DNA of 50,048 nt. Source: Escherichia phage vB_EcoS_IME347. The translations under genes were made by a program, and so were the position numbers. The stretch lies in sequence record MH051918. One strand, 5' to 3'. Position 1 is the stretch's first letter, and each line of letters opens with the position of its first letter. The notes beneath the pieces are model-generated. The model was not told the DNA's origin. It saw nothing but the letters and a program-made list of their open reading frames with translations, and searched no databases. Shown one piece after another: positions 1 through 50,048 of the stretch.

Positions 1-450
1 CCTACCGACTTTTCCGTTTTTAGCAAAAAGTGCTATCGTGACAAGATTACATTGACTCGCTGTATATCACTGTCTACAATTTCCCGGATTTGTCGGCGTG
101 ACAAAATTACACCTCGCGCCCCTGAGAGTGAGATTACATAACTCTATGATATATATAATAATAATAGTTAAATTTTATCTTTTATATACATAAAATATTG
201 TATTGTCATTGTGGCGTATAGGGTGTACACAATGTATATCTCAGATTTCGTGAAAATGATAATTCATGGACATTTATACAGTACTCTATTTGCATATGCT
301 TATATAGGGAAAACACAGTGACATTGTATACAGTGTGTACACCGCAAAAAAATGCGCCGCGAGCCATTGTAAACGCTGGATTCTTATGTCAACATAGCCA
401 CTTATTGACGCCCCGATACGGGCATAGACACTGTAACTAAGGAGCACGTT
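1..450. promoter_or_regulatory. AT-rich divergent early control region A with operator-like inverted repeats
   Basis: No long ORF; AT-rich; copies of a GTGAC-N10-GTCAC-like 20-bp element at 37-56 and 95-113; a 40-bp block at 313-355 is nearly repeated in region B (31423-31465); lies immediately upstream of the first early ORF. Confidence 0.5.
17..37 (-). promoter_or_regulatory. intergenic motif copy (reverse variant) at the window start
   Basis: TTTTAGCAAAAAGTGCTATC; reverse complement matches the AATAGCACTTTTTGCTAAAA variant. Confidence 0.4.
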
Positions 451-972
451 ATGAGCAATACCAATCAGCAACCACAAATCACCGACATGATTCGCCTTGC
501 CTGTCAAAATCACTACGCCGCAGGTGAAGCCATGTTCAGCTTCGACGCGCAACAAATGGCCTTCCACACCGTCAAGAAGTATGCGGAGCAATCCGGGATG
601 GATATCACCGACGAGCAGATCGACGAGGAAGCCGCTCGTTGGGTGGGGCAGAATACCGAGAACATTGCGAAGCGGTTCAAGCCGTCATTTGCGCAGCCGA
701 TCATTAAGCGATTCTTTGCTCACATCGGAAAGGCCGTCGTGGTGAATACCGGGCGCAACGATGCCAACGAACCGATGATTACCGTGACCATTACGGACGA
801 GGAAGTCGTGAAGCCGCAGCGCAAGAGCCGGGCGAAGAAAAAGCAATCCATCGGGGACATTCTGGATTCGTTCGTCGTGGACGTGTCGAAGCTCGGGGAT
901 TCGGAGTTGATGGTTCGCGATGTGAATGAAATCGTTCGGCAAATGAAGGAGCACATCCTGAAAGGTGAATAG
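451..972 (+). CDS. hypothetical early protein (173 aa)
   Basis: ATG preceded by AAGGAG at 439-444; long ORF; stop TAG embedded in the downstream intergenic motif; no recognisable domain. Confidence 0.6.
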   Translation: MSNTNQQPQITDMIRLACQNHYAAGEAMFSFDAQQMAFHTVKKYAEQSGMDITDEQIDEEAARWVGQNTENIAKRFKPSFAQPIIKRFFAHIGKAVVVNTGRNDANEPMITVTITDEEVVKPQRKSRAKKKQSIGDILDSFVVDVSKLGDSELMVRDVNEIVRQMKEHILKGE

Positions 973-1012
973 CACGAATTGCTAAAACAGGCGGAAGGGA
1001 ATCCGCTATTAT
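968..1012 (+). promoter_or_regulatory. intergenic module: AATAGCACGAATTGCTAAAA motif + hairpin + TATTAT
   Basis: Motif at 968-987 overlaps the stop codon of the upstream ORF; inverted repeat gcgga..tccgc at 991-1006; -10-like hexamer at 1007-1012; followed by RBS and ATG at 1049. Confidence 0.55.
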
Positions 1013-4355: not shown

Positions 4356-4654
4356 ACAACTTGCACGAACTGAAGATTTTCCCGCGCCACTTCTACGGCG
4401 TGAAGATGGGGCAGAAGAAAGCAGAATTCAGGGTTGACGATCGCGGATTCAAAACTGGCGACACGCTCCGCCTTCGCGAATGGCACGAGGGCGACTTTAC
4501 CGGGCGGGAAATCAGCGTTGTGGTGACTGACGTAACCGACGTGACCGAGTTCATCAATCGGGCGAACGCCGAACTGTACAACGGGAACCGCTTCGTAATG
4601 CTGTCGTTCTTCGTGGTTCACGCGAGCCTTTGCGATATCCCGTACATCCGATAG
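4352..4654 (+). CDS. ASCH-like (DUF3850-type) small protein (100 aa)
   Basis: N-terminal pattern HELKIFP..F..V..G.K..E.R..DR.F..GD.L.L.E...TGRE resembles the DUF3850/ASCH fold; judged by eye only. Confidence 0.45.
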   Translation: MNNLHELKIFPRHFYGVKMGQKKAEFRVDDRGFKTGDTLRLREWHEGDFTGREISVVVTDVTDVTEFINRANAELYNGNRFVMLSFFVVHASLCDIPYIR

Positions 4655-4702
4655 CACGAATTGCTAAAACAATAATCCGGGGCTATGCCATAATAGCCCC
4701 AC
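4650..4702 (+). promoter_or_regulatory. intergenic motif module (GATAGCACGAATTGCTAAAA + hairpin + CATAAT)
   Basis: Motif overlaps stop TAG; inverted repeat ggggctatg..catagcccc with TGCCATAAT-like element inside. Confidence 0.5.
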
Positions 4703-5280: not shown

Positions 5281-5474
5281 TTAACTACGAAGATGCAGCG
5301 CGTGACGCTATCGATGGTATGCTGCCAAATTCGAAGCGTGTGGCTCACTATCGCGGTTTTAAGGGTTCACCTGTTAAACTGTATTGCGAGATTTTGAAGC
5401 TCTCAGAAGTCGATACAGCGCGTTTAGAGGCATACGATTTTAAGCGTTTTTCGATAACCATCGAAACCAAATAG
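5265..5474 (+). CDS. hypothetical early protein (69 aa)
   Basis: In-frame ATG at 5265 within track ORF 5205..5474. Confidence 0.4.
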   Translation: MDSDLINYEDAARDAIDGMLPNSKRVAHYRGFKGSPVKLYCEILKLSEVDTARLEAYDFKRFSITIETK

Positions 5475-5520
5475 CACGAATTGCTAAAAACCTATCAGGG
5501 GAATGCGCTATGATTCCCCT
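5470..5520 (+). promoter_or_regulatory. intergenic motif module (AATAGCACGAATTGCTAAAA + hairpin + TATGAT)
   Basis: Motif overlaps stop TAG; inverted repeat ggggaatgcgc..gattcccc. Confidence 0.5.
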
Positions 5521-6590: not shown

Positions 6591-7174
6591 TGAGCAAAGT
6601 AATCATTCTCAACGCGCCGCCAGCATGTGGCAAAGACACGATAGGTTCAATCATCGCGGATATGAATCAGATTTATGGCGTTCGCATGTTGAGCTTCAAA
6701 GCGCCGATGTTCGAGATCGCCCGAGCTATCCTCGGTGATGCGAACTTTGATTATTTCATGTTCCTTTATAACGATCGGCTCCATAAGGAAAAGCCCGATT
6801 CCATTCTGAACGGTAAAAGCCCGCGCGAGTTCATGATCTGGATTAGCGAGGCAATCATTAAGCCAGAATTCGGCAATGATTATTTCGGGCGTCGAATGGT
6901 TGAGGCTGTCAAGTCAGGCACTGCCCCGGCGATTATCACGGACGGCGGATTCACTGAAGAGACAATCGCACTAATTGAAGCTGGTATTCAGGTTCACGTC
7001 TGCCGACTGCACCGCGACGGATTCACGTTTGAAGGCGACTCGCGAAACTATCTTCACCTGCCTGTGGGCTGGCAAGGCGTAAACGGCTACACCGAAGAAG
7101 ATTTCCAGTTACGTGACGGTGATCCTGATTACACTGCCAGCGTGATTACCGGGAAATACCTGCGTCACTTCTAA
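6590..7174 (+). CDS. P-loop kinase, deoxynucleoside-monophosphate-kinase-like (194 aa)
   Basis: N-terminal IILNAPPACGKDT resembles the GKDT P-loop of phage dNMP kinases (T4 gp1 type); identified by eye, not by search. Confidence 0.5.
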   Translation: MSKVIILNAPPACGKDTIGSIIADMNQIYGVRMLSFKAPMFEIARAILGDANFDYFMFLYNDRLHKEKPDSILNGKSPREFMIWISEAIIKPEFGNDYFGRRMVEAVKSGTAPAIITDGGFTEETIALIEAGIQVHVCRLHRDGFTFEGDSRNYLHLPVGWQGVNGYTEEDFQLRDGDPDYTASVITGKYLRHF

Positions 7175-7224
7175 TAGCACGAATTGCTAAAAACTCGGCG
7201 GGGTAAGCTGTTATAGTTACCCCA
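7174..7224 (+). promoter_or_regulatory. intergenic motif module (AATAGCACGAATTGCTAAAA + hairpin with TGTTATAGT)
   Basis: Motif overlaps stop TAA at 7172-7174; inverted repeat ggggtaagctg..agttacccc. Confidence 0.5.
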
Positions 7225-9579: not shown

Positions 9580-9598
9580 AATAGCACGAAATGTTAAA
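9580..9598 (+). promoter_or_regulatory. intergenic motif copy (AATAGCACGAAATGTTAAA) upstream of terS
   Basis: Motif variant between the terminator and the RBS GGAGG at 9604-9608. Confidence 0.45.
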
Positions 9599-9614
9599 CA
9601 TCGGAGGACGTTTT

Positions 9615-10139
9615 ATGGAACGGAAAGAGAAAGCGCCCGTAGTGCAGGGCGGTAATTTTAAGGAGCTATACCGAAAGAAATTCGGAACGATTATCGGAAA
9701 ATCAGCCAGCTTCACGCCTGAACAGGTTTTCGATCTGGCGGTGAAGTATTTCACGTGGGCGGAGGACAACGCAATTAAAGCCTCTGAGACAGCGAGTTTT
9801 CAGGGTGAAGTGGAGGAGTCACTCGTTCATAAACCGCGCGTGTTTACTCACAACGGCTTCCGCCTGTTCCTTGGGATCAGCGAGTCGGCGGTCACGAAGT
9901 GGCGGCGACAGGAAGATTTCGCAGAGGTGATGGAGTTCGTTGATACGGTAATCAGCGAGCAGAAATTCCAGCTTGCAGCTAACGGCGTGATTAATGCCTC
10001 GTTCATCGGGAAAGACTTGGGGATCGACAAGCCAGCGACAATCAACATCGACAACCAAGCGAACGCCACGGCGGGCGCGATCGCCTCCACTGAGTCCGCG
10101 ATGCGCGATGCGGTAGAGAGTATTCTGGATAACCTTTAA
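9615..10139 (+). CDS. terS: terminase small subunit (putative)
   Basis: ATG at 9615 with GGAGG RBS; lies immediately upstream of the large terminase gene; HTH-like segment. Confidence 0.55.
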   Translation: MERKEKAPVVQGGNFKELYRKKFGTIIGKSASFTPEQVFDLAVKYFTWAEDNAIKASETASFQGEVEESLVHKPRVFTHNGFRLFLGISESAVTKWRRQEDFAEVMEFVDTVISEQKFQLAANGVINASFIGKDLGIDKPATINIDNQANATAGAIASTESAMRDAVESILDNL

Positions 10140-10172: not shown

Positions 10173-11744
10173 ATGTTAGTGTGGGAAGAACTGGACGCAA
10201 CGCAAAAGCTTGCGATCAAGAAAATGAGCGAGGCAAGTTTCGAAAAGATGATTCGGATCTGGTTTCAGCTTATTCAGGCGCAGCAATTTAAACCTAACTG
10301 GCATCACCTTTACCTTTGTCACGAGGTGGAGGAAATCATCGCCGGGCGGCGCGGGAATACGATCTTCAACGTAACGCCGGGTTCCGGTAAAACCGAAGTG
10401 TTTTCGATTCACCTCCCTGTGTACGCGATGCTTCGCGTGAACAAGATCCGAAACCTGAACGTGTCGTTTGCCGATAGTCTCGTCAAGCGTAACAGCAAGC
10501 GAGTGCGAGAAATCATCGCATCGAAAGAGTTCCAAGAGTTATGGCCTTGCGGGTTCGCCACGTCCAAAGATGATGAAATTCAGGTTCTCAATCAGGCTGG
10601 CAAGGTGTGGTTCGAACTGATATCCAAGGCGGCTGGCGGACAAATTACGGGTTCTCGTGGTGGCTACATGAGCGACGGATTCTCCGGGATGGTGATGCTT
10701 GACGATATCGACAAGCCGGACGATATGTTTTCCAAGGTCAAGCGAGAGCGTACACACACGCTCCTGAAGAATACAATCCGAAGCCGAAGGATGCACAACG
10801 AAACGCCGATTATCGCCATACAGCAGCGCCTACACGCGCAGGATTCGACGTGGTTCATGATGTCGGGCGGAATGGGGATAGACTTCGAACAGATCTCAAT
10901 CCCGGCTCTCGTTACTGAGGAATACGGGCAATCGCTTCCTGAATGGTTACGCCCTCACTTCGAGAAGGATGTTCTCTCGTCCGAGTATGTGATGATAGAC
11001 GGAGTGAAGCATTACAGCTTCTGGCCTGACAAGGAATCTGTTCACGATCTGATTGCATTGCGAGAGGCAGACCAGTACACGTTCGACTCGCAGTACCAGC
11101 AGCGCCCGATCGCGCTTGGTGGCTCCGTGTTTAACTCGGAGTGGTGGACGTACTACGGAAACAGCCTTGAGGCTGACGAACCAGATCCCGGCAAGTTTGA
11201 CTATCGTTTCATTACGGCTGATACCGCTCAGAAAACAGGTGAGCTTAATGACTACACTGTATTCTGTCTTTGGGGTAAGAAAAACGATAAGGTGTACTTT
11301 ATCGACGGGGTTCGCGGAAAGTGGAAAGCGCCGGAAATGGAGACTCAGTTTAAATCATTCGTTAGCACGGCATGGCGTCACAATAAGTCGATGGGCGTAC
11401 TCAGAAAAATCTACGTGGAGGATAAAGCGAGCGGGACGGGCTTGATTCAGAATCTGGAGAAGAAAACTCCCGTCCCGATCACGCCATTGCAGCGAAATAA
11501 GGATAAGGTTACTCGCGCGATGGATGCGCAGCCAGTAATCAAGGCCGGGCGCGTTGTTCTGCCTGAATCGCATCCTATGCTTTCCGAAATCATCACGGAG
11601 CATAGCGCATTCACATACGACGACACGCACCCTCACGACGATATTGTCGATAACTTCATGGATGCGGCAAACATCGAACTTCTGACGATAGACGATCCTA
11701 TCGAACGAATGAAACGCCTTGCGGGAATGGCAAAGCGCAAGTAA
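10173..11744 (+). CDS. terL: terminase large subunit
   Basis: Walker A TPGSGKTE and acidic Walker B-like LDDIDKPDD in the N-terminal half, with a C-terminal nuclease-like half; 523 aa. Confidence 0.85.
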   Translation: MLVWEELDATQKLAIKKMSEASFEKMIRIWFQLIQAQQFKPNWHHLYLCHEVEEIIAGRRGNTIFNVTPGSGKTEVFSIHLPVYAMLRVNKIRNLNVSFADSLVKRNSKRVREIIASKEFQELWPCGFATSKDDEIQVLNQAGKVWFELISKAAGGQITGSRGGYMSDGFSGMVMLDDIDKPDDMFSKVKRERTHTLLKNTIRSRRMHNETPIIAIQQRLHAQDSTWFMMSGGMGIDFEQISIPALVTEEYGQSLPEWLRPHFEKDVLSSEYVMIDGVKHYSFWPDKESVHDLIALREADQYTFDSQYQQRPIALGGSVFNSEWWTYYGNSLEADEPDPGKFDYRFITADTAQKTGELNDYTVFCLWGKKNDKVYFIDGVRGKWKAPEMETQFKSFVSTAWRHNKSMGVLRKIYVEDKASGTGLIQNLEKKTPVPITPLQRNKDKVTRAMDAQPVIKAGRVVLPESHPMLSEIITEHSAFTYDDTHPHDDIVDNFMDAANIELLTIDDPIERMKRLAGMAKRK

Positions 11745-11750
11745 ACGAGG

Positions 11751-11797
11751 TATAATCAGGGCTGGATTTTTCCAGCCCTTTTTTATTGGAGGTAGTA
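11751..11797 (+). promoter_or_regulatory. late leader module: TATAAT + hairpin + UUUUUUAUU + GGAGG
   Basis: TATAAT at 11751-11756; stem cagggctgg..ccagccc; T-rich run then GGAGG immediately before the portal ATG; same architecture at 15474-15522 and 17154-17205. Confidence 0.5.
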
Positions 11798-13111
11798 ATG
11801 AAAATTGTTAAGCAAGATGGGTACAACGAGATCTTTAACGGCGGTGCTGAAGGCGCTCCAAAACCTTTCTACGTAAGCAATCCGCTTGCTTACGGGTTGG
11901 GTTATCTTTACGAGAATAACGGTCTTGCTCGTCGAATCATCGACGTTGTACCGGAAGAAATGGTAGCGCCCGGATTCAAGGTTTCTGGTGTGCAGGATGA
12001 AGCGGCCTTTCGCTCCTCGTGGGATGAACTGGAAATTGAAGGTCATATCGTTGATGCGCTTGCGTGGCGTCGCCTGTATGGTGGTTCAGCTATCGTGGCG
12101 ATCATCAATGACGGTCGGAAGCTAACCTCTCCGGCAAAACCCGAGGGTGTGCTGGAAGGCGTCCGAGTGTACGATCGGGATCAGGTTCAAGTGGAGAAGA
12201 AAGAAACCAACGCGCGAAACATTCGCTACGGCGAGCCTGTTTTGTACAAGATTTCCCCCGGCGACGGGCTGACCCCTTATCTTGTTCACCACACCCGAAT
12301 CAAGATTCTGGACGGCGAACGCCTTCCCCTTCAGCAGCGAAAGATGAATGACGGATGGGGCGCTTCAGTCCTGAATAAGTCTCTGATTGAAGCGATTTAC
12401 GATTACGAGTATTGCGAGGAGCTTGCGACTCAATTACTACGCCGTAAGCAGCAAGCAGTTTGGAAGGTTAAAGGGTTGGCGGAAATGTGTGACGACGACG
12501 AAGCGCAATTCGCTGCACGAATCCGATTGGCTCAGGTGGATGATAATTCCGGTGTCGGTAAGGCGGTTGGTATCGATGCGGAAACGGAGGAATACGAGAT
12601 CCTAAACTCCGACGTTAACGGTGTGTCTGAATTCCTTCAGGGCAAATTCGATCGCATCGTGTCGCTATCCGGGATTCACGAAATCATCCTGAAGAATAAG
12701 AACGTCGGCGGCGTAAGCGCAAGCCAGAATACGGCGCTTGAGACTTTCTATAAGTTGATTGACCGCCAGCGCGCGGAGCATTACCTCCCGATTCTGGAAT
12801 TTCTGCTCCCGTACATGCTGCACGAAAATGAATGGTCTGTGGAGTTCGAACCGCTCTCCATGCCTTCGGAAAAGGAAGCGTCGGAAACAACGAAGAATCA
12901 CGTTGAGGCTATTCGCGGTGCTCTGGAAGATCAGATGATTGACTTAGAAGAGGCTCGCGATACATTGCAATCCGTTGCGCCAATGTTTAAGCTGAAAGAC
13001 CTGAACCACAAAGAGCTTGAGAGCCGTATGCAGGAACAACAGCAGCAAGAGCAGGAACCGGGCGTTAGCGAAGTAATCAGCGAATCGGAGGGAGAAGAGG
13101 GTGAAGATTAA
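11798..13111 (+). CDS. portal protein
   Basis: 437-aa ORF directly downstream of terL; acidic C-terminal tail; position conserved in siphovirus head modules. Confidence 0.75.
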   Translation: MKIVKQDGYNEIFNGGAEGAPKPFYVSNPLAYGLGYLYENNGLARRIIDVVPEEMVAPGFKVSGVQDEAAFRSSWDELEIEGHIVDALAWRRLYGGSAIVAIINDGRKLTSPAKPEGVLEGVRVYDRDQVQVEKKETNARNIRYGEPVLYKISPGDGLTPYLVHHTRIKILDGERLPLQQRKMNDGWGASVLNKSLIEAIYDYEYCEELATQLLRRKQQAVWKVKGLAEMCDDDEAQFAARIRLAQVDDNSGVGKAVGIDAETEEYEILNSDVNGVSEFLQGKFDRIVSLSGIHEIILKNKNVGGVSASQNTALETFYKLIDRQRAEHYLPILEFLLPYMLHENEWSVEFEPLSMPSEKEASETTKNHVEAIRGALEDQMIDLEEARDTLQSVAPMFKLKDLNHKELESRMQEQQQQEQEPGVSEVISESEGEEGED

Positions 13112-36845: not shown

Positions 36846-36900
36846 CGCGTAACAGGAGTTTACCCGCTACGCGCTTTTGTGTTTTAGCTATTTGTGCTCT
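36846..36900 (-). promoter_or_regulatory. hairpin plus reverse-orientation motif copy at the end of the HTH gene
   Basis: On the - strand: motif GAGCACAAATAGCTAAAA (36883-36900, overlapping the stop of gene 36884..37327) followed by stem cgcgta..tacgcg and a T run. Confidence 0.45.
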
Positions 36901-41737: not shown

Positions 41738-42877
41738 ATGTCAATGTCAAAAATCACAACCGAACAGCTTATCGAAGAGCGCGAAAACGGCCTGACCCTT
41801 CGCGAGATCGCGGAGAAGTACGGGATGCATATCCGCACGGTTGAGGCTCGACACGCGAAGCTTGCAAAGGAAGGTCACTTCCACGGCAACAAGCACGTAG
41901 CCGCCAACGTTCCGACCGGGTTCGCCGTAAAAGGTACGTCCGTCATGATTGACGCCGAAGGCAACGAAAAGGTTCGCTGGGTTAAGACCGATCAGGACAA
42001 AGAGAAGATTTACCAACTCATGCAAGCGGCGCAGGTTGCATTTTGCGAAGAGTTGCCGCGCGAAGCCCCAACCCCGATCGAAATAAACAAGCGATTCGAC
42101 GAGGATTCGCTGGCGCTTTACCCGGTATTCGATCTTCATATCGGCGCACTGGCGCACAAGCACGAGTCCGGCGAGAACTACTCCACCGATATCGCGGAAG
42201 ATGTTCTGAACAAGTATTTCGGCTATGCAGTCGGCAAGGCTCCTAACGCACAAAAAGCCGTCCTGTTAATCGGCGGTGACTTCCTGCACTCTGACGGCCT
42301 TGACGCTGTTACCCCGGCAAGCGGTCATGTTCTGGATCAGGACTCGCGTTATGCCAAACTGGTTTACGTCGCAATCCGCGCTACTCGCCGGGCGATCGCT
42401 AAGATGCTGGAGAAACATGCTGAGGTTGAGGTTCAGATTATCGAAGGCAACCACGATCAGGCAGGTATGATTTGGCTACGCGCTGCAATGGCGGCATACT
42501 ACGAGGACGAGCCGCGCGTGAACGTTGACGTTAGCCCGATGATTCTGCACAAAACCCGTTGGGGCAAAACGCTGTTAGGCTACACTCACGGTCACACGAT
42601 GAAGAAAGCGGACACTCGCCTTGCAGCAATGGCGGCAGACTTCCGCGATGATTTCGGCGCGAGCAAGTACGTTTACACTCACAGCGGTCATTGGCATCAC
42701 CAGACGATCACCGAGCATACGTTGGGTATCGACGAGGTTCACGGTCAACTCGGGGCGAAGGATGCTTATGCGGCTCGCGGCGGCTGGCGAGCGTACCGTC
42801 AAGCGGCTGTTATCGTGTACTCAAAAGAGTTTGGCGAGATCGGGCGCTTTATCTACCGTCCAGAAATGACGGCGTAA
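41738..42877 (+). CDS. HTH-fused calcineurin-like metallophosphoesterase
   Basis: N-terminal HTH-like LTLREIAEKYGMHIRTV; phosphoesterase motifs DLHIG, GGDFLHSD, GNHD, GHTH/GHWH in canonical order; RBS AAGGAA. Confidence 0.65.
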   Translation: MSMSKITTEQLIEERENGLTLREIAEKYGMHIRTVEARHAKLAKEGHFHGNKHVAANVPTGFAVKGTSVMIDAEGNEKVRWVKTDQDKEKIYQLMQAAQVAFCEELPREAPTPIEINKRFDEDSLALYPVFDLHIGALAHKHESGENYSTDIAEDVLNKYFGYAVGKAPNAQKAVLLIGGDFLHSDGLDAVTPASGHVLDQDSRYAKLVYVAIRATRRAIAKMLEKHAEVEVQIIEGNHDQAGMIWLRAAMAAYYEDEPRVNVDVSPMILHKTRWGKTLLGYTHGHTMKKADTRLAAMAADFRDDFGASKYVYTHSGHWHHQTITEHTLGIDEVHGQLGAKDAYAARGGWRAYRQAAVIVYSKEFGEIGRFIYRPEMTA

Positions 42878-47666: not shown

Positions 47667-47686
47667 TTTAGCAATTCGTGCTATTT
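47667..47686 (-). promoter_or_regulatory. intergenic motif copy (reverse; AAAATAGCACGAATTGCTAAAA on - strand)
   Basis: Exact consensus in reverse orientation, followed on the - strand by hairpin ggggtgat..atcacccc. Confidence 0.5.
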
Positions 47687-48857: not shown

Positions 48858-48879
48858 TTTTAACAAAAAGTGCTATTTA
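48858..48879 (-). promoter_or_regulatory. intergenic motif copy (reverse variant) with hairpin
   Basis: On the - strand: AAATAGCACTTTTTGTTAAAA overlapping stop of gene 48877..49194, followed by ggggtagtttggcataattacccc. Confidence 0.5.
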
Positions 48880-49515: not shown

Positions 49516-49794
49516 TTAGATAGATTTCTTCGCAACCTTGTATGCTTCCTTGAAAGCCGGAACATCTTCGATTTCAATCCAGAAGCCGGAGCCATAACCA
49601 TCCTCATAGCAAGGGCACTGATCGCAATAGTCGCCCCAAGTTTTCTCAACGCCACCGATAGAAAACCCTGTGGACATTTCGCAAAGCGCTTCCTCTACAG
49701 CTTCGATCTTGTCGGCGTCGTTGTCCATGATTACAAAGTTCCACTTGCCGTTGTATTCAGTACCGAGTTTGATAGATTCGCGCTTGAGTTTCAT
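49516..49794 (-). CDS. hypothetical acidic protein (92 aa)
   Basis: ORF in track; first gene of the leftward array. Confidence 0.45.
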   Translation of the reverse strand: MKLKRESIKLGTEYNGKWNFVIMDNDADKIEAVEEALCEMSTGFSIGGVEKTWGDYCDQCPCYEDGYGSGFWIEIEDVPAFKEAYKVAKKSI

Positions 49795-49860
49795 GAGTTG
49801 CTCCGTTGTTTTGTGTGCTTCGTTTCGATGAGTGTATTATGCCAAACCAAGCCGATCGAT

Positions 49861-49880
49861 GTTTAGCAAAAAGTGCTATT
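49861..49880 (-). promoter_or_regulatory. intergenic motif copy (reverse variant) at the head of the leftward array
   Basis: On the - strand: AATAGCACTTTTTGCTAAAC, upstream of gene 49516..49794. Confidence 0.45.
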
Positions 49881-50048
49881 CCTGAAATTGTCGATTATTC
49901 CACCGATTCTGGAATAACTGGAATACTTGATGATTACTCATGATTGCAAATGACAAGTTGTGATTATTGCGTGATGTGGAATGATTGCTGTGATTGTTGC
50001 TTGTAATGCAATGAATGTGGAGGGGAGATTATTATGATGCGCTCCTCG

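Follow-up and report, generated by a model that had tools for sequence, protein, structure and literature searches.

The last ~170 bp and the first bases of the genome record of Escherichia phage vB_EcoS_IME347 (MH051918) probably constitute the pac (packaging initiation) region of a T1-like headful phage. The window that we analyzed is the entire record, 50,048 bp of a T1-like phage (Drexlerviridae), and near its right edge stands a cluster of TGATT repeats that is not random, despite an unremarkable raw count. What appears to be a truncated gene at the record edge is almost certainly not a gene, and the edge would instead be a meaningful genome end.

The open end of the genome record

IME347 follows the usual T1 map, in which a run of small plus-strand genes begins at 451 and a run of small minus-strand genes ends with a DUF5417 gene starting at 49794. 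The features near the opening, together with the portal gene, are:

11786-13111, + strand: portal gene
49516-49794, − strand: first leftward gene, DUF5417 protein (Pfam E 4e-47)
50015-50048, + strand: purine-rich spacer (GGAGGGGAGA), the zone of the mapped packaging cut in relatives, which holds the supposed “Shine-Dalgarno plus ATG”
50034-50048 joined to 1-141, + strand: edge ORF of 51 aa, MMRSSPTDFSVF...EIT*, with its stop at 139-141; judged spurious
1-6, + strand: first record bases CCTACC, homologous to the first packaged bases of MSK, CTA|CCATAC, at PhageTerm position 36,862

Between the two gene runs lies a 704-bp intergenic region, made up of 254 bp at the end of the record and 450 bp at its start, that holds no convincing gene. 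Once the two ends are joined, the DNA of relatives aligns across them gap-free (in the multiple alignment, no bases are missing relative to T1 or SH2): BrunoManser matches junction positions 24-455 and LHE71 positions 64-567, and both BrunoManser and SRT8 have an intergenic region of ~710 bp at the equivalent place. A terminal direct repeat was not found inside the record, where only dispersed promoter modules match one another. Because relatives read through the junction and the record has no internal terminal repeat, we take it to be a complete, unit-length genome opened in the intergenic region; as part of the packaging explanation as a whole, it is likely to be a circular permutation opened at, or within a few bases of, the first terminase cut on the concatemer. 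The preliminary description of this DNA, which had an ORF running off the right edge and took this to mean that the terminus of the window is not gene-free, was wrong on this point, since the edge frame is not a conserved gene and the record opens in a gene-free region.

Database matches to the last 2.5 kb and the first 6 kb of IME347 are confined to Drexlerviridae and are patchy, and the phage collection searched held no near-identical record. The DUF5417 gene (49516-49794) has 83% DNA identity to Enterobacter phage Ec_L1 alone, and most small genes near it have no DNA-level relatives, a pattern that suggests mosaic exchange in the early region. Among Tunavirus relatives, the homologous intergenic region of ADB-2, Eco_BIFF, LeonhardEuler, SH6 and DELF2 is interrupted by ~750 bp that include a gene for a DNA methyltransferase, which in LeonhardEuler is Dcm-like; the insertion sits to the right of the candidate pac region and is absent from IME347.

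The signals from which the edge gene had been read are present as described, namely GGAGGGGA at 50019-50026 and an ATG at 50034-50036, joined by a second ATG at 50037; the frame from 50034 stays open to base 50048, only 5 codons within the record. That these signals mark the real start of a small protein gene continuing past the record end draws some support from relatives, as a purine-rich stretch followed 7 nt on by ATG or GTG recurs in IME347, T1, SH2, IME167, BrunoManser and SRT8, but the frame itself is not kept. It spans 51, 12 or 20 aa depending on the phage: in T1, SH2 and IME167 it has a GTG start and 12 aa, with its stop in the TAG of the neighboring repeat element, in BrunoManser it has 20 aa, and the alignment contains nothing comparable in MSK, UDF157lw and mtp10. 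Nor is its translation conserved, as tblastn of the 51-aa product returned E values of at least 0.04, mainly against homologous DNA of relatives with no annotated gene, in matches that begin at residue 10, where the repeat element begins. The frame further overruns an orphan repeat element and a promoter at 52-80 (both described below), and the mapped DNA end cuts through it. A genuine gene start here is thus extremely improbable, and within the packaging explanation GGAGGGGA and the ATG are more plausibly part of the spacer than a translation start.

Two roles had been suggested for the repeats. That of a promoter or operator for the truncated gene falls with the gene, and no sigma-70-like site lies inside the array, the nearest predicted promoters being those at 49865-49836 (− strand) and 52-80 (+ strand); that of a packaging or terminal region has fared well, with the ends of seven relatives nearby. 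The adjoining sequence, which is the start of the record, gives a matching split: continuation of the ORF is not conserved, while the repeats are strongly so.

A helically phased repeat array with a conserved core

All of the TGATT repeats first listed are present on the plus strand, at 49931, 49941, 49961, 49982 and 49991, as confirmed by reading and by script. They form part of a larger arrangement:

49877-49925, no strand assigned: TATTCC/GGAATA inverted and direct repeats, between the leftward promoter and the array
49931-50014, + strand: helically phased TGAT[TG] array, with units at 49931, 49941, 49961, 49972, 49982 and 49991
49991-50014, + strand: core TGATTGTTGC-N7-GCAATGA, the end of the array, defined from alignments

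Weaker units, TGACA at 49951 and TGAAT at 50011, lie within the array, which also contains two TGATTRTTGC 10-mers 30 bp apart (49961-49970 and 49991-50000). By raw count alone the cluster is at chance level, as 79 of 100 block shuffles of the genome reach five copies of some 5-mer within 70 bp, and Tandem Repeats Finder reported no tandem repeat in the array. The case therefore rests on uniqueness, phasing and conservation.

First, the array occurs once per genome. No second 90-bp stretch, whichever strand is read, carries four or more TGATT, and the exact TGATT[AG]TTGC has only its two copies here (49961 and 49991) in 50,048 bp. A single copy per genome is what would be expected of a pac site.

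Second, its units keep one helical register. The TGATT spacings are 10, 20, 21 and 9 bp in IME347, and unit spacings are 10, 20, 11 and 19 bp in BrunoManser and 10, 11, 20, 10 and 21 bp in Klebsiella phage mtp10. Measuring distances from an anchor, the G of GCAATGA at 50008, we find TGAT[TG] units at the following offsets:

IME347: −77, −67, −47, −36, −26, −17
IME167: −77, −67, −57, −47, −18, +4
mtp10: −68, −58, −47, −27, −17, +4
T1: −57, −47, −17, +4

The four phages share a register (in IME347, an offset mod 10 of 3-4) and differ in which slots are filled, such that the array amounts to some eight or nine sites, one helical turn apart, from about −77 to +4 relative to GCAATGA.

Third, the array and above all its core are conserved. 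The best-conserved stretch of the 704-bp intergenic region is 49855-50014, where the identity of 20-nt bins to T1, IME167 and BrunoManser is 0.55-0.83, mostly at least 0.67, as against about 0.4-0.65 elsewhere, and the peak of 0.83 falls on the bin 49995-50014, that is, on the core. The core, which encloses the palindrome TTGC-N7-GCAA (49997-50011) and leads into a purine-rich stretch, is found in IME347, T1, SH2 and IME167 (Tunavirinae), MSK and Rtp (Braunvirinae), UDF157lw (Rogunavirinae) and mtp10 (Webervirus), as well as in two metagenome contigs, L080 and L082; GCAATGA reads GCAATTA in MSK. SU57 (Braunvirinae) has a diverged copy of the core, and in TLS (Tempevirinae) a TGATT cluster occurs along with a purine tract, though GCAATGA is absent. 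In a megablast search with the last 2.5 kb, the array block alone matches Sertoctavirus phages and Citrobacter phage IME-JL8, whereas the neighboring genes do not. A strict pattern scan of IMG/VR recovered T1 and Sfin-3 only, and a loose pattern returned 120 loci, nearly all of them chance matches, with 4 T1-like loci that include two new contigs keeping core and purine tract. On these sequence grounds the stretch 49931-50014 is a candidate for the recognition part of pac.

The repeats to its left are more variable. In IME347, TATTCC occurs at 49877 and 49896 and GGAATA at 49911 and 49920, with longer arms TTATTCCA (49895-49902) and TGGAATAA (49910-49917). They are kept in Tunavirinae and Webervirus, while MSK, Rtp, UDF157lw and TLS have other palindromes, and they may be part of pac or of promoter control. 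Between the leftward promoter element and the array, TLS has, near the end of its record, two copies of TAGACCGATTGGTCTA, and the same stretch in MSK (L005 880-960), Rtp, SU57 and UDF157lw carries ATTGC-N7-GCAAT units.

DNA ends in relatives

The array coincides with the place where genomes of this family begin and end. The ends and record openings, relative to the anchor, are:

MSK (Braunvirinae): +42, terminus 42 nt past the G of GCAATTA (record position 36,862)
UDF157lw (Rogunavirinae): +36, record break 36 nt after GCAATGA
SU57: +60 from the core, record break
IME347: +41, record break
IME167: +47, record break
SH2: +26, record break
T1: −42, position 1, inside the array and the start of an annotated 2800-bp terminal repeat_region
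Rtp: −48, record opening
TLS: position 1 inside the TGATT cluster, followed by the purine tract GAGTAGTGAGTGAG
mtp10: +196, record break, in reversed orientation

Several of these positions go back to measurement. For MSK, PhageTerm placed a forward-strand terminus at 36,862 (PMC8421802); the deposited UDF157lw sequence is the version re-organized by PhageTerm, whose call was pac-type headful packaging (PMC10838988); the SU57 end was picked from PhageTerm candidates at an abrupt change of read frequency, in a study stating that the pac site “was not identified” (PMC7718038); and position 1 of TLS was set by restriction mapping of a sub-molar pac fragment (PMC11447400). Taken together, seven relatives have a mapped end or a record end no further than about 100 bp from the array, and the three PhageTerm-based ends lie 36-60 nt downstream of the core. 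The chance that a random break in a 50-kb genome falls in such a span is roughly 1 in 1000 per record, which argues that the record breaks are real ends or end-driven assembly breaks. The forward-strand terminus of MSK and the position of the T1 repeat at the left end further indicate that packaging proceeds rightward.

The precision of the cut is less clear. Around the core, the ends in relatives vary between −48 and +60, and the break in the mtp10 record, probably not a mapped pac end, was treated as uninformative. Several studies of T1-like phages ran PhageTerm and obtained no clear terminus (KanT1; 7WV; four Webervirus phages), so any pac cut may be weak or imprecise. The end assigned to IME347 itself is its record break (+41), the PhageTerm-based ends being those of MSK, UDF157lw and SU57, and this break could reflect convention rather than measurement. 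By homology with these relatives, the DNA of IME347 would end at 50048|1, with bases 1-6 as the presumptive left physical end of the first headful.

Promoters around the array and competing roles

The array sits amid early-gene control elements, which invite other explanations of its function:

49862-49879, − strand: exact copy of the 18-21-nt family-wide element ATAGCACnnnTTGnTAAA, 68-85 nt upstream of the start at 49794
49865-49836, − strand: predicted leftward promoter
969-986 (+), 4651-4668 (+), 5471-5488 (+), 7174-7191 (+), 47667-47684 (−), 48859-48876 (−) and 49862-49879 (−): examples of the 31 ATAGCACnnnTTGnTAAA sites
19-36, − strand: orphan ATAGCACnnnTTGnTAAA copy that points left to the cut and the array, with neither a gene nor a properly spaced −10
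52-80, + strand: sigma-70-like promoter TTGACT-17-TACAAT (10/12 matches), the first rightward promoter past the inferred DNA end
38-51, 98-111, 128-138: repeats GTGACAAGATTACA, GTGACAAAATTACA and GTGAGATTACA, just right of the cut
~147-210: AT-only tract (TA)n(AAT)n, tgatatatataataataatagttaaatttta...

The element ATAGCACnnnTTGnTAAA has 31 copies in IME347, and the copy at 49862-49879 combines with a −10-like CATAAT into the promoter module of the first leftward gene. An intergenic 21-nt repeat of T1-like phages, aaATAGCACnnnTTGnTAAAA, has been described for phage TLS, in a report whose accessible part gives the repeat and makes no mention of a hairpin (PMC11447400). Judged by consensus, position upstream of a start and orientation with transcription, 49862-49879 is a repeat of this type and the TGATT units are not.

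The ATAGCACnnnTTGnTAAA modules have a structure of their own. Each spans ~95 nt and starts with the element; an inverted repeat comes next, then a conserved CAyCGAAACGAA leader, and a Shine-Dalgarno sequence and ATG close the module. The inverted repeat surrounds the −10-like hexamer, and its two arms vary from copy to copy yet remain complementary (GGGGCTAT/ATAGCCCC, GGGGAAT/ATTCCCC, GGGGTAA/TTACCCC, GGGGTGAT/ATCACCCC). Such compensatory arms around a −10 suggest a promoter that might form a hairpin or cruciform.

One competing explanation is that the array consists of operators at which a phage regulator controls the divergent early promoters 49865-49836 and 52-80, the nearness of the cut being incidental. 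The array does lie between these promoters, the TATTCC/GGAATA repeats abut the leftward promoter module, the units of MSK, Rtp, SU57 and UDF157lw are 17-bp palindromes (ATTGC-N7-GCAAT) typical of sites for dimeric helix-turn-helix proteins, and these phages encode an HTH “transcriptional regulator” (Rtp52). Yet the array overlaps neither promoter, being at least 65 bp from the leftward −35 and about 85 bp from the rightward promoter; its motif is found nowhere else in the genome and is absent from the other 30 of the 31 promoter modules; and a strict 10-bp phasing over about 80 bp would be unusual for operators. We consider it unlikely that the array serves as a set of operators instead of a packaging signal. 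Right of the cut, the first RATTAC-type repeat (38-51) overlaps the −35 of promoter 52-80. T1 and BrunoManser have GATTAC/AATTAC repeats at the equivalent place, and hexamers equivalent to those of the promoter can be picked out by eye in T1 (TTGATT-17-TATGAT) and in SH2 and IME167 (TTGTCA-17-TAGAAT). The three repeats at 38-51, 98-111 and 128-138 could be operators of promoter 52-80 or the right-hand half of pac.

A second, still less likely explanation takes the units as iterons of a replication origin, with the AT tract at ~147-210 as the unwinding element. The array is a single-copy repeat cluster near an AT-rich tract that is present in IME347, T1, MSK, UDF157lw, TLS, SU57 and mtp10, no defined T1-like origin was found in the literature, and 3.2 kb to the left is a gene of DUF3987 helicase type. 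On the other side, the functional data at this spot concern DNA ends only, units 10 bp apart are more closely spaced than typical iterons (four of 18 bp are annotated in the lambda record), and the AT tract is ~130-150 bp off, with a promoter and the cut site in between. The AT-only tract, present at the same relative place in T1, MSK, SU57, UDF157lw, TLS and mtp10, could serve for unwinding, as a strong promoter region or for the binding of a protein. Given the position of the array between divergent promoters and near this tract, packaging could go together with a role in regulation or replication.

The orphan ATAGCACnnnTTGnTAAA copy at 19-36 raises a further idea, namely that a leftward transcript starts from a module at this element and that its AAUCA-rich RNA acts as a leader or small RNA. 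The element points left, is conserved in Tunavirinae and is kept at the same place in T1, SH2, IME167 and BrunoManser, and the sequence that follows it, AGGAG...CATAAT...CTCCCCTCCACA, loosely resembles the inverted-repeat-plus-−10 layout of other modules. However, the −10-like hexamer stands 30 nt past the element, not about 20, with no fitting −35, and no promoter is predicted at the equivalent place in BrunoManser. The putative RNA folds no better than shuffles (z = −1.3 and −0.7), the homologous BrunoManser region has no Rfam match at E <= 1, and the palindrome arms keep the same sequence between units and show no covariation, so that we regard an RNA role as quite improbable. Within the array, a search for a promoter, a terminator, an Rfam family and a significant RNA fold found none of these. 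The inferred cut lies between the orphan element and the nearest −10-like CATAAT, which is the reverse complement of 50031-50036 and contains the edge ATG.

Terminases and a model for packaging initiation

IME347 encodes both a small and a large terminase of headful type, as expected of a phage with a pac site:

9591-10139, + strand: TerS, small terminase of the P22 gp3 family (Pfam PF16677 GP3_package, E 4e-12; PDB 3p9a, P22 gp3, E 1.5e-15)
10173-11744, + strand: TerL, large terminase (Pfam PF17289 Terminase_6C, E 2e-15)

The TerS homologues of relatives are annotated as terminase small subunit, ST64T gp3 is among the matches, and no relative has a TerS more than 71% identical to that of IME347. 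Small terminases of this kind form rings, and DNA wrapped around such a ring is believed to be contacted by its outward-facing DNA-binding parts. The PDB 3p9a entry has 9 chains, a number compatible with about nine sites at 10-bp spacing. Relatives of IME347 are documented as headful packagers (PMC8421802; PMC10838988; PMC11447400).

We therefore favor packaging initiation as the role of the array and envisage the following course. A TerS ring would bind the units of the array from a single face of the DNA and probably wrap some 80-90 bp; bound TerS would then position TerL, whose cut would come 3-4 helical turns downstream, within the purine-rich stretch at about 50048|1; and from there DNA would be packaged rightward by headful, starting with promoter 52-80 and the plus-strand genes. 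Both the identity of the binding protein as TerS and the geometry of wrapping are what we infer from the arrangement of sites: some nine of them, one per turn over ~80 bp, fit a ring-shaped TerS, and a cut 3-4 turns past the last site fits a nuclease held beside the ring.

A more specific proposal, to which we give somewhat less than even credence, is that the hitherto undefined recognition site of T1-type packaging consists of about nine TGAT(T/G) sites, one per turn, read by the ring subunits of a P22-gp3-like TerS that wraps about 80-90 bp, with a cut 3-4 turns past the last site, and that this site, displaced by 9.6 kb from the terminase genes, now lies in the region of the divergent early promoters, where the cut also splits an orphan promoter-like element. 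With the site in the early-promoter region and the cut splitting that element, packaging initiation and early transcription could be physically coupled. Two further observations speak against the packaging explanation: the site lies 9.6 kb from terS on the circular map, and the palindromes of the Rtp group, ATTGC-N7-GCAAT, resemble classical operators for dimers.

Comparison with known pac systems

For T1 and its relatives (Drexlerviridae), genetics and restriction mapping have put the pac site at the left end of the map. It is in the same place as that proposed for IME347, the large intergenic region between the leftward and rightward arrays of small genes, and the T1, Rtp and TLS records open in that region. 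T1-like phages, which are frequent contaminants in the laboratory and in industry, also carry out generalized transduction and are candidates for therapy; until now, the map position of their packaging signal has been only approximate. Their packaging is described as headful from pac (PMC7718038 and PMC11447400); for TLS, the latter assigns pac as AGATTT by analogy with P22. In the literature searched, outside of which the T1 and Rtp genome papers fall, we found no sequence-level description of T1-like pac recognition elements, and a text search for the core 10-mer gave no phage paper among the matches listed. A pac site is an ordinary kind of feature, and it is the repeat pattern for which no description was found. 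A concrete, conserved and testable pac sequence would allow the genome records of the family to be opened consistently, could explain the frequent unclear PhageTerm answers in T1-like phages and could permit transduction and packaging specificity to be engineered; the array would also offer a repeat-array substrate for P22-gp3-type small terminases, whose DNA recognition is debated.

Packaging by T1 reportedly can begin on lambda DNA as well, in the interval between genes P and Q (Drexler, 1984). Scanning lambda with a profile of the Tunavirus pac core gave no significant match (best E 1.7), and four of the nine top weak matches, none of them significant, lie between P and Q. One of these four, TGCGTGGTGTGCAAC at 42840-42854, matches 14 of 15 bases of T1 TGCATGGTGTGCAAC, with an E of 2.9 that is not significant alone. 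The surrounding stretch 42823-42854, inside ninG, reads GCAATATTCACAAGCAATGCGTGGTGTGCAAC and holds this match to the T1 pac palindrome together with two GCAAT. As pac-like sites, the P-Q matches are suggestive at most.

With P22, IME347 shares a homologous small terminase (TerS and gp3) and headful packaging initiated at pac. P22 pac consists of one asymmetric 22-bp sequence within gene 3, and in P22, Sf6 and SPP1 alike pac lies in or next to the terS gene, whereas the IME347 site is an intergenic repeat array 9.6 kb upstream of terS. A pac of the P22/Sf6 type in or near terS, the assumption made for TLS, was considered for IME347 and rejected: the best match to the P22 22-mer, as quoted in the TLS report (PMC11447400), is 15/22, equal to shuffles, and is not in terS.

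The resemblance to P1 is one of repeat design. The P1 pac covers about 160 bp, with seven TGATC(A/G) hexamers flanking the cut and control by Dam methylation; in IME347, too, many short TGAT-type units stand by the cut, and TGATT(A/G) is one base off the P1 hexamer. In contrast to P1, the IME347 units contain no GATC, the nearest being at 49705 and 49854 and none occurring from 49855 to the end of the window or in 1-300, which makes Dam control of these units impossible. IME347 further has a clear array on one side of the cut only, and its terminase proteins are unrelated to those of P1, no PacA-type match having been seen by Pfam.

In SPP1, finally, the TerS-binding boxes pacL and pacR flank the cleavage site pacC. 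SPP1 pac differs in overlapping the start of the terS gene region, and the right-hand boxes have in IME347 only candidate counterparts, the RATTAC repeats at 38-51, 98-111 and 128-138. What the two have in common is the plan itself, with repeated boxes spread over about 100 bp, proposed in IME347 to be bound by TerS, and a cut that falls outside them at a fixed distance.
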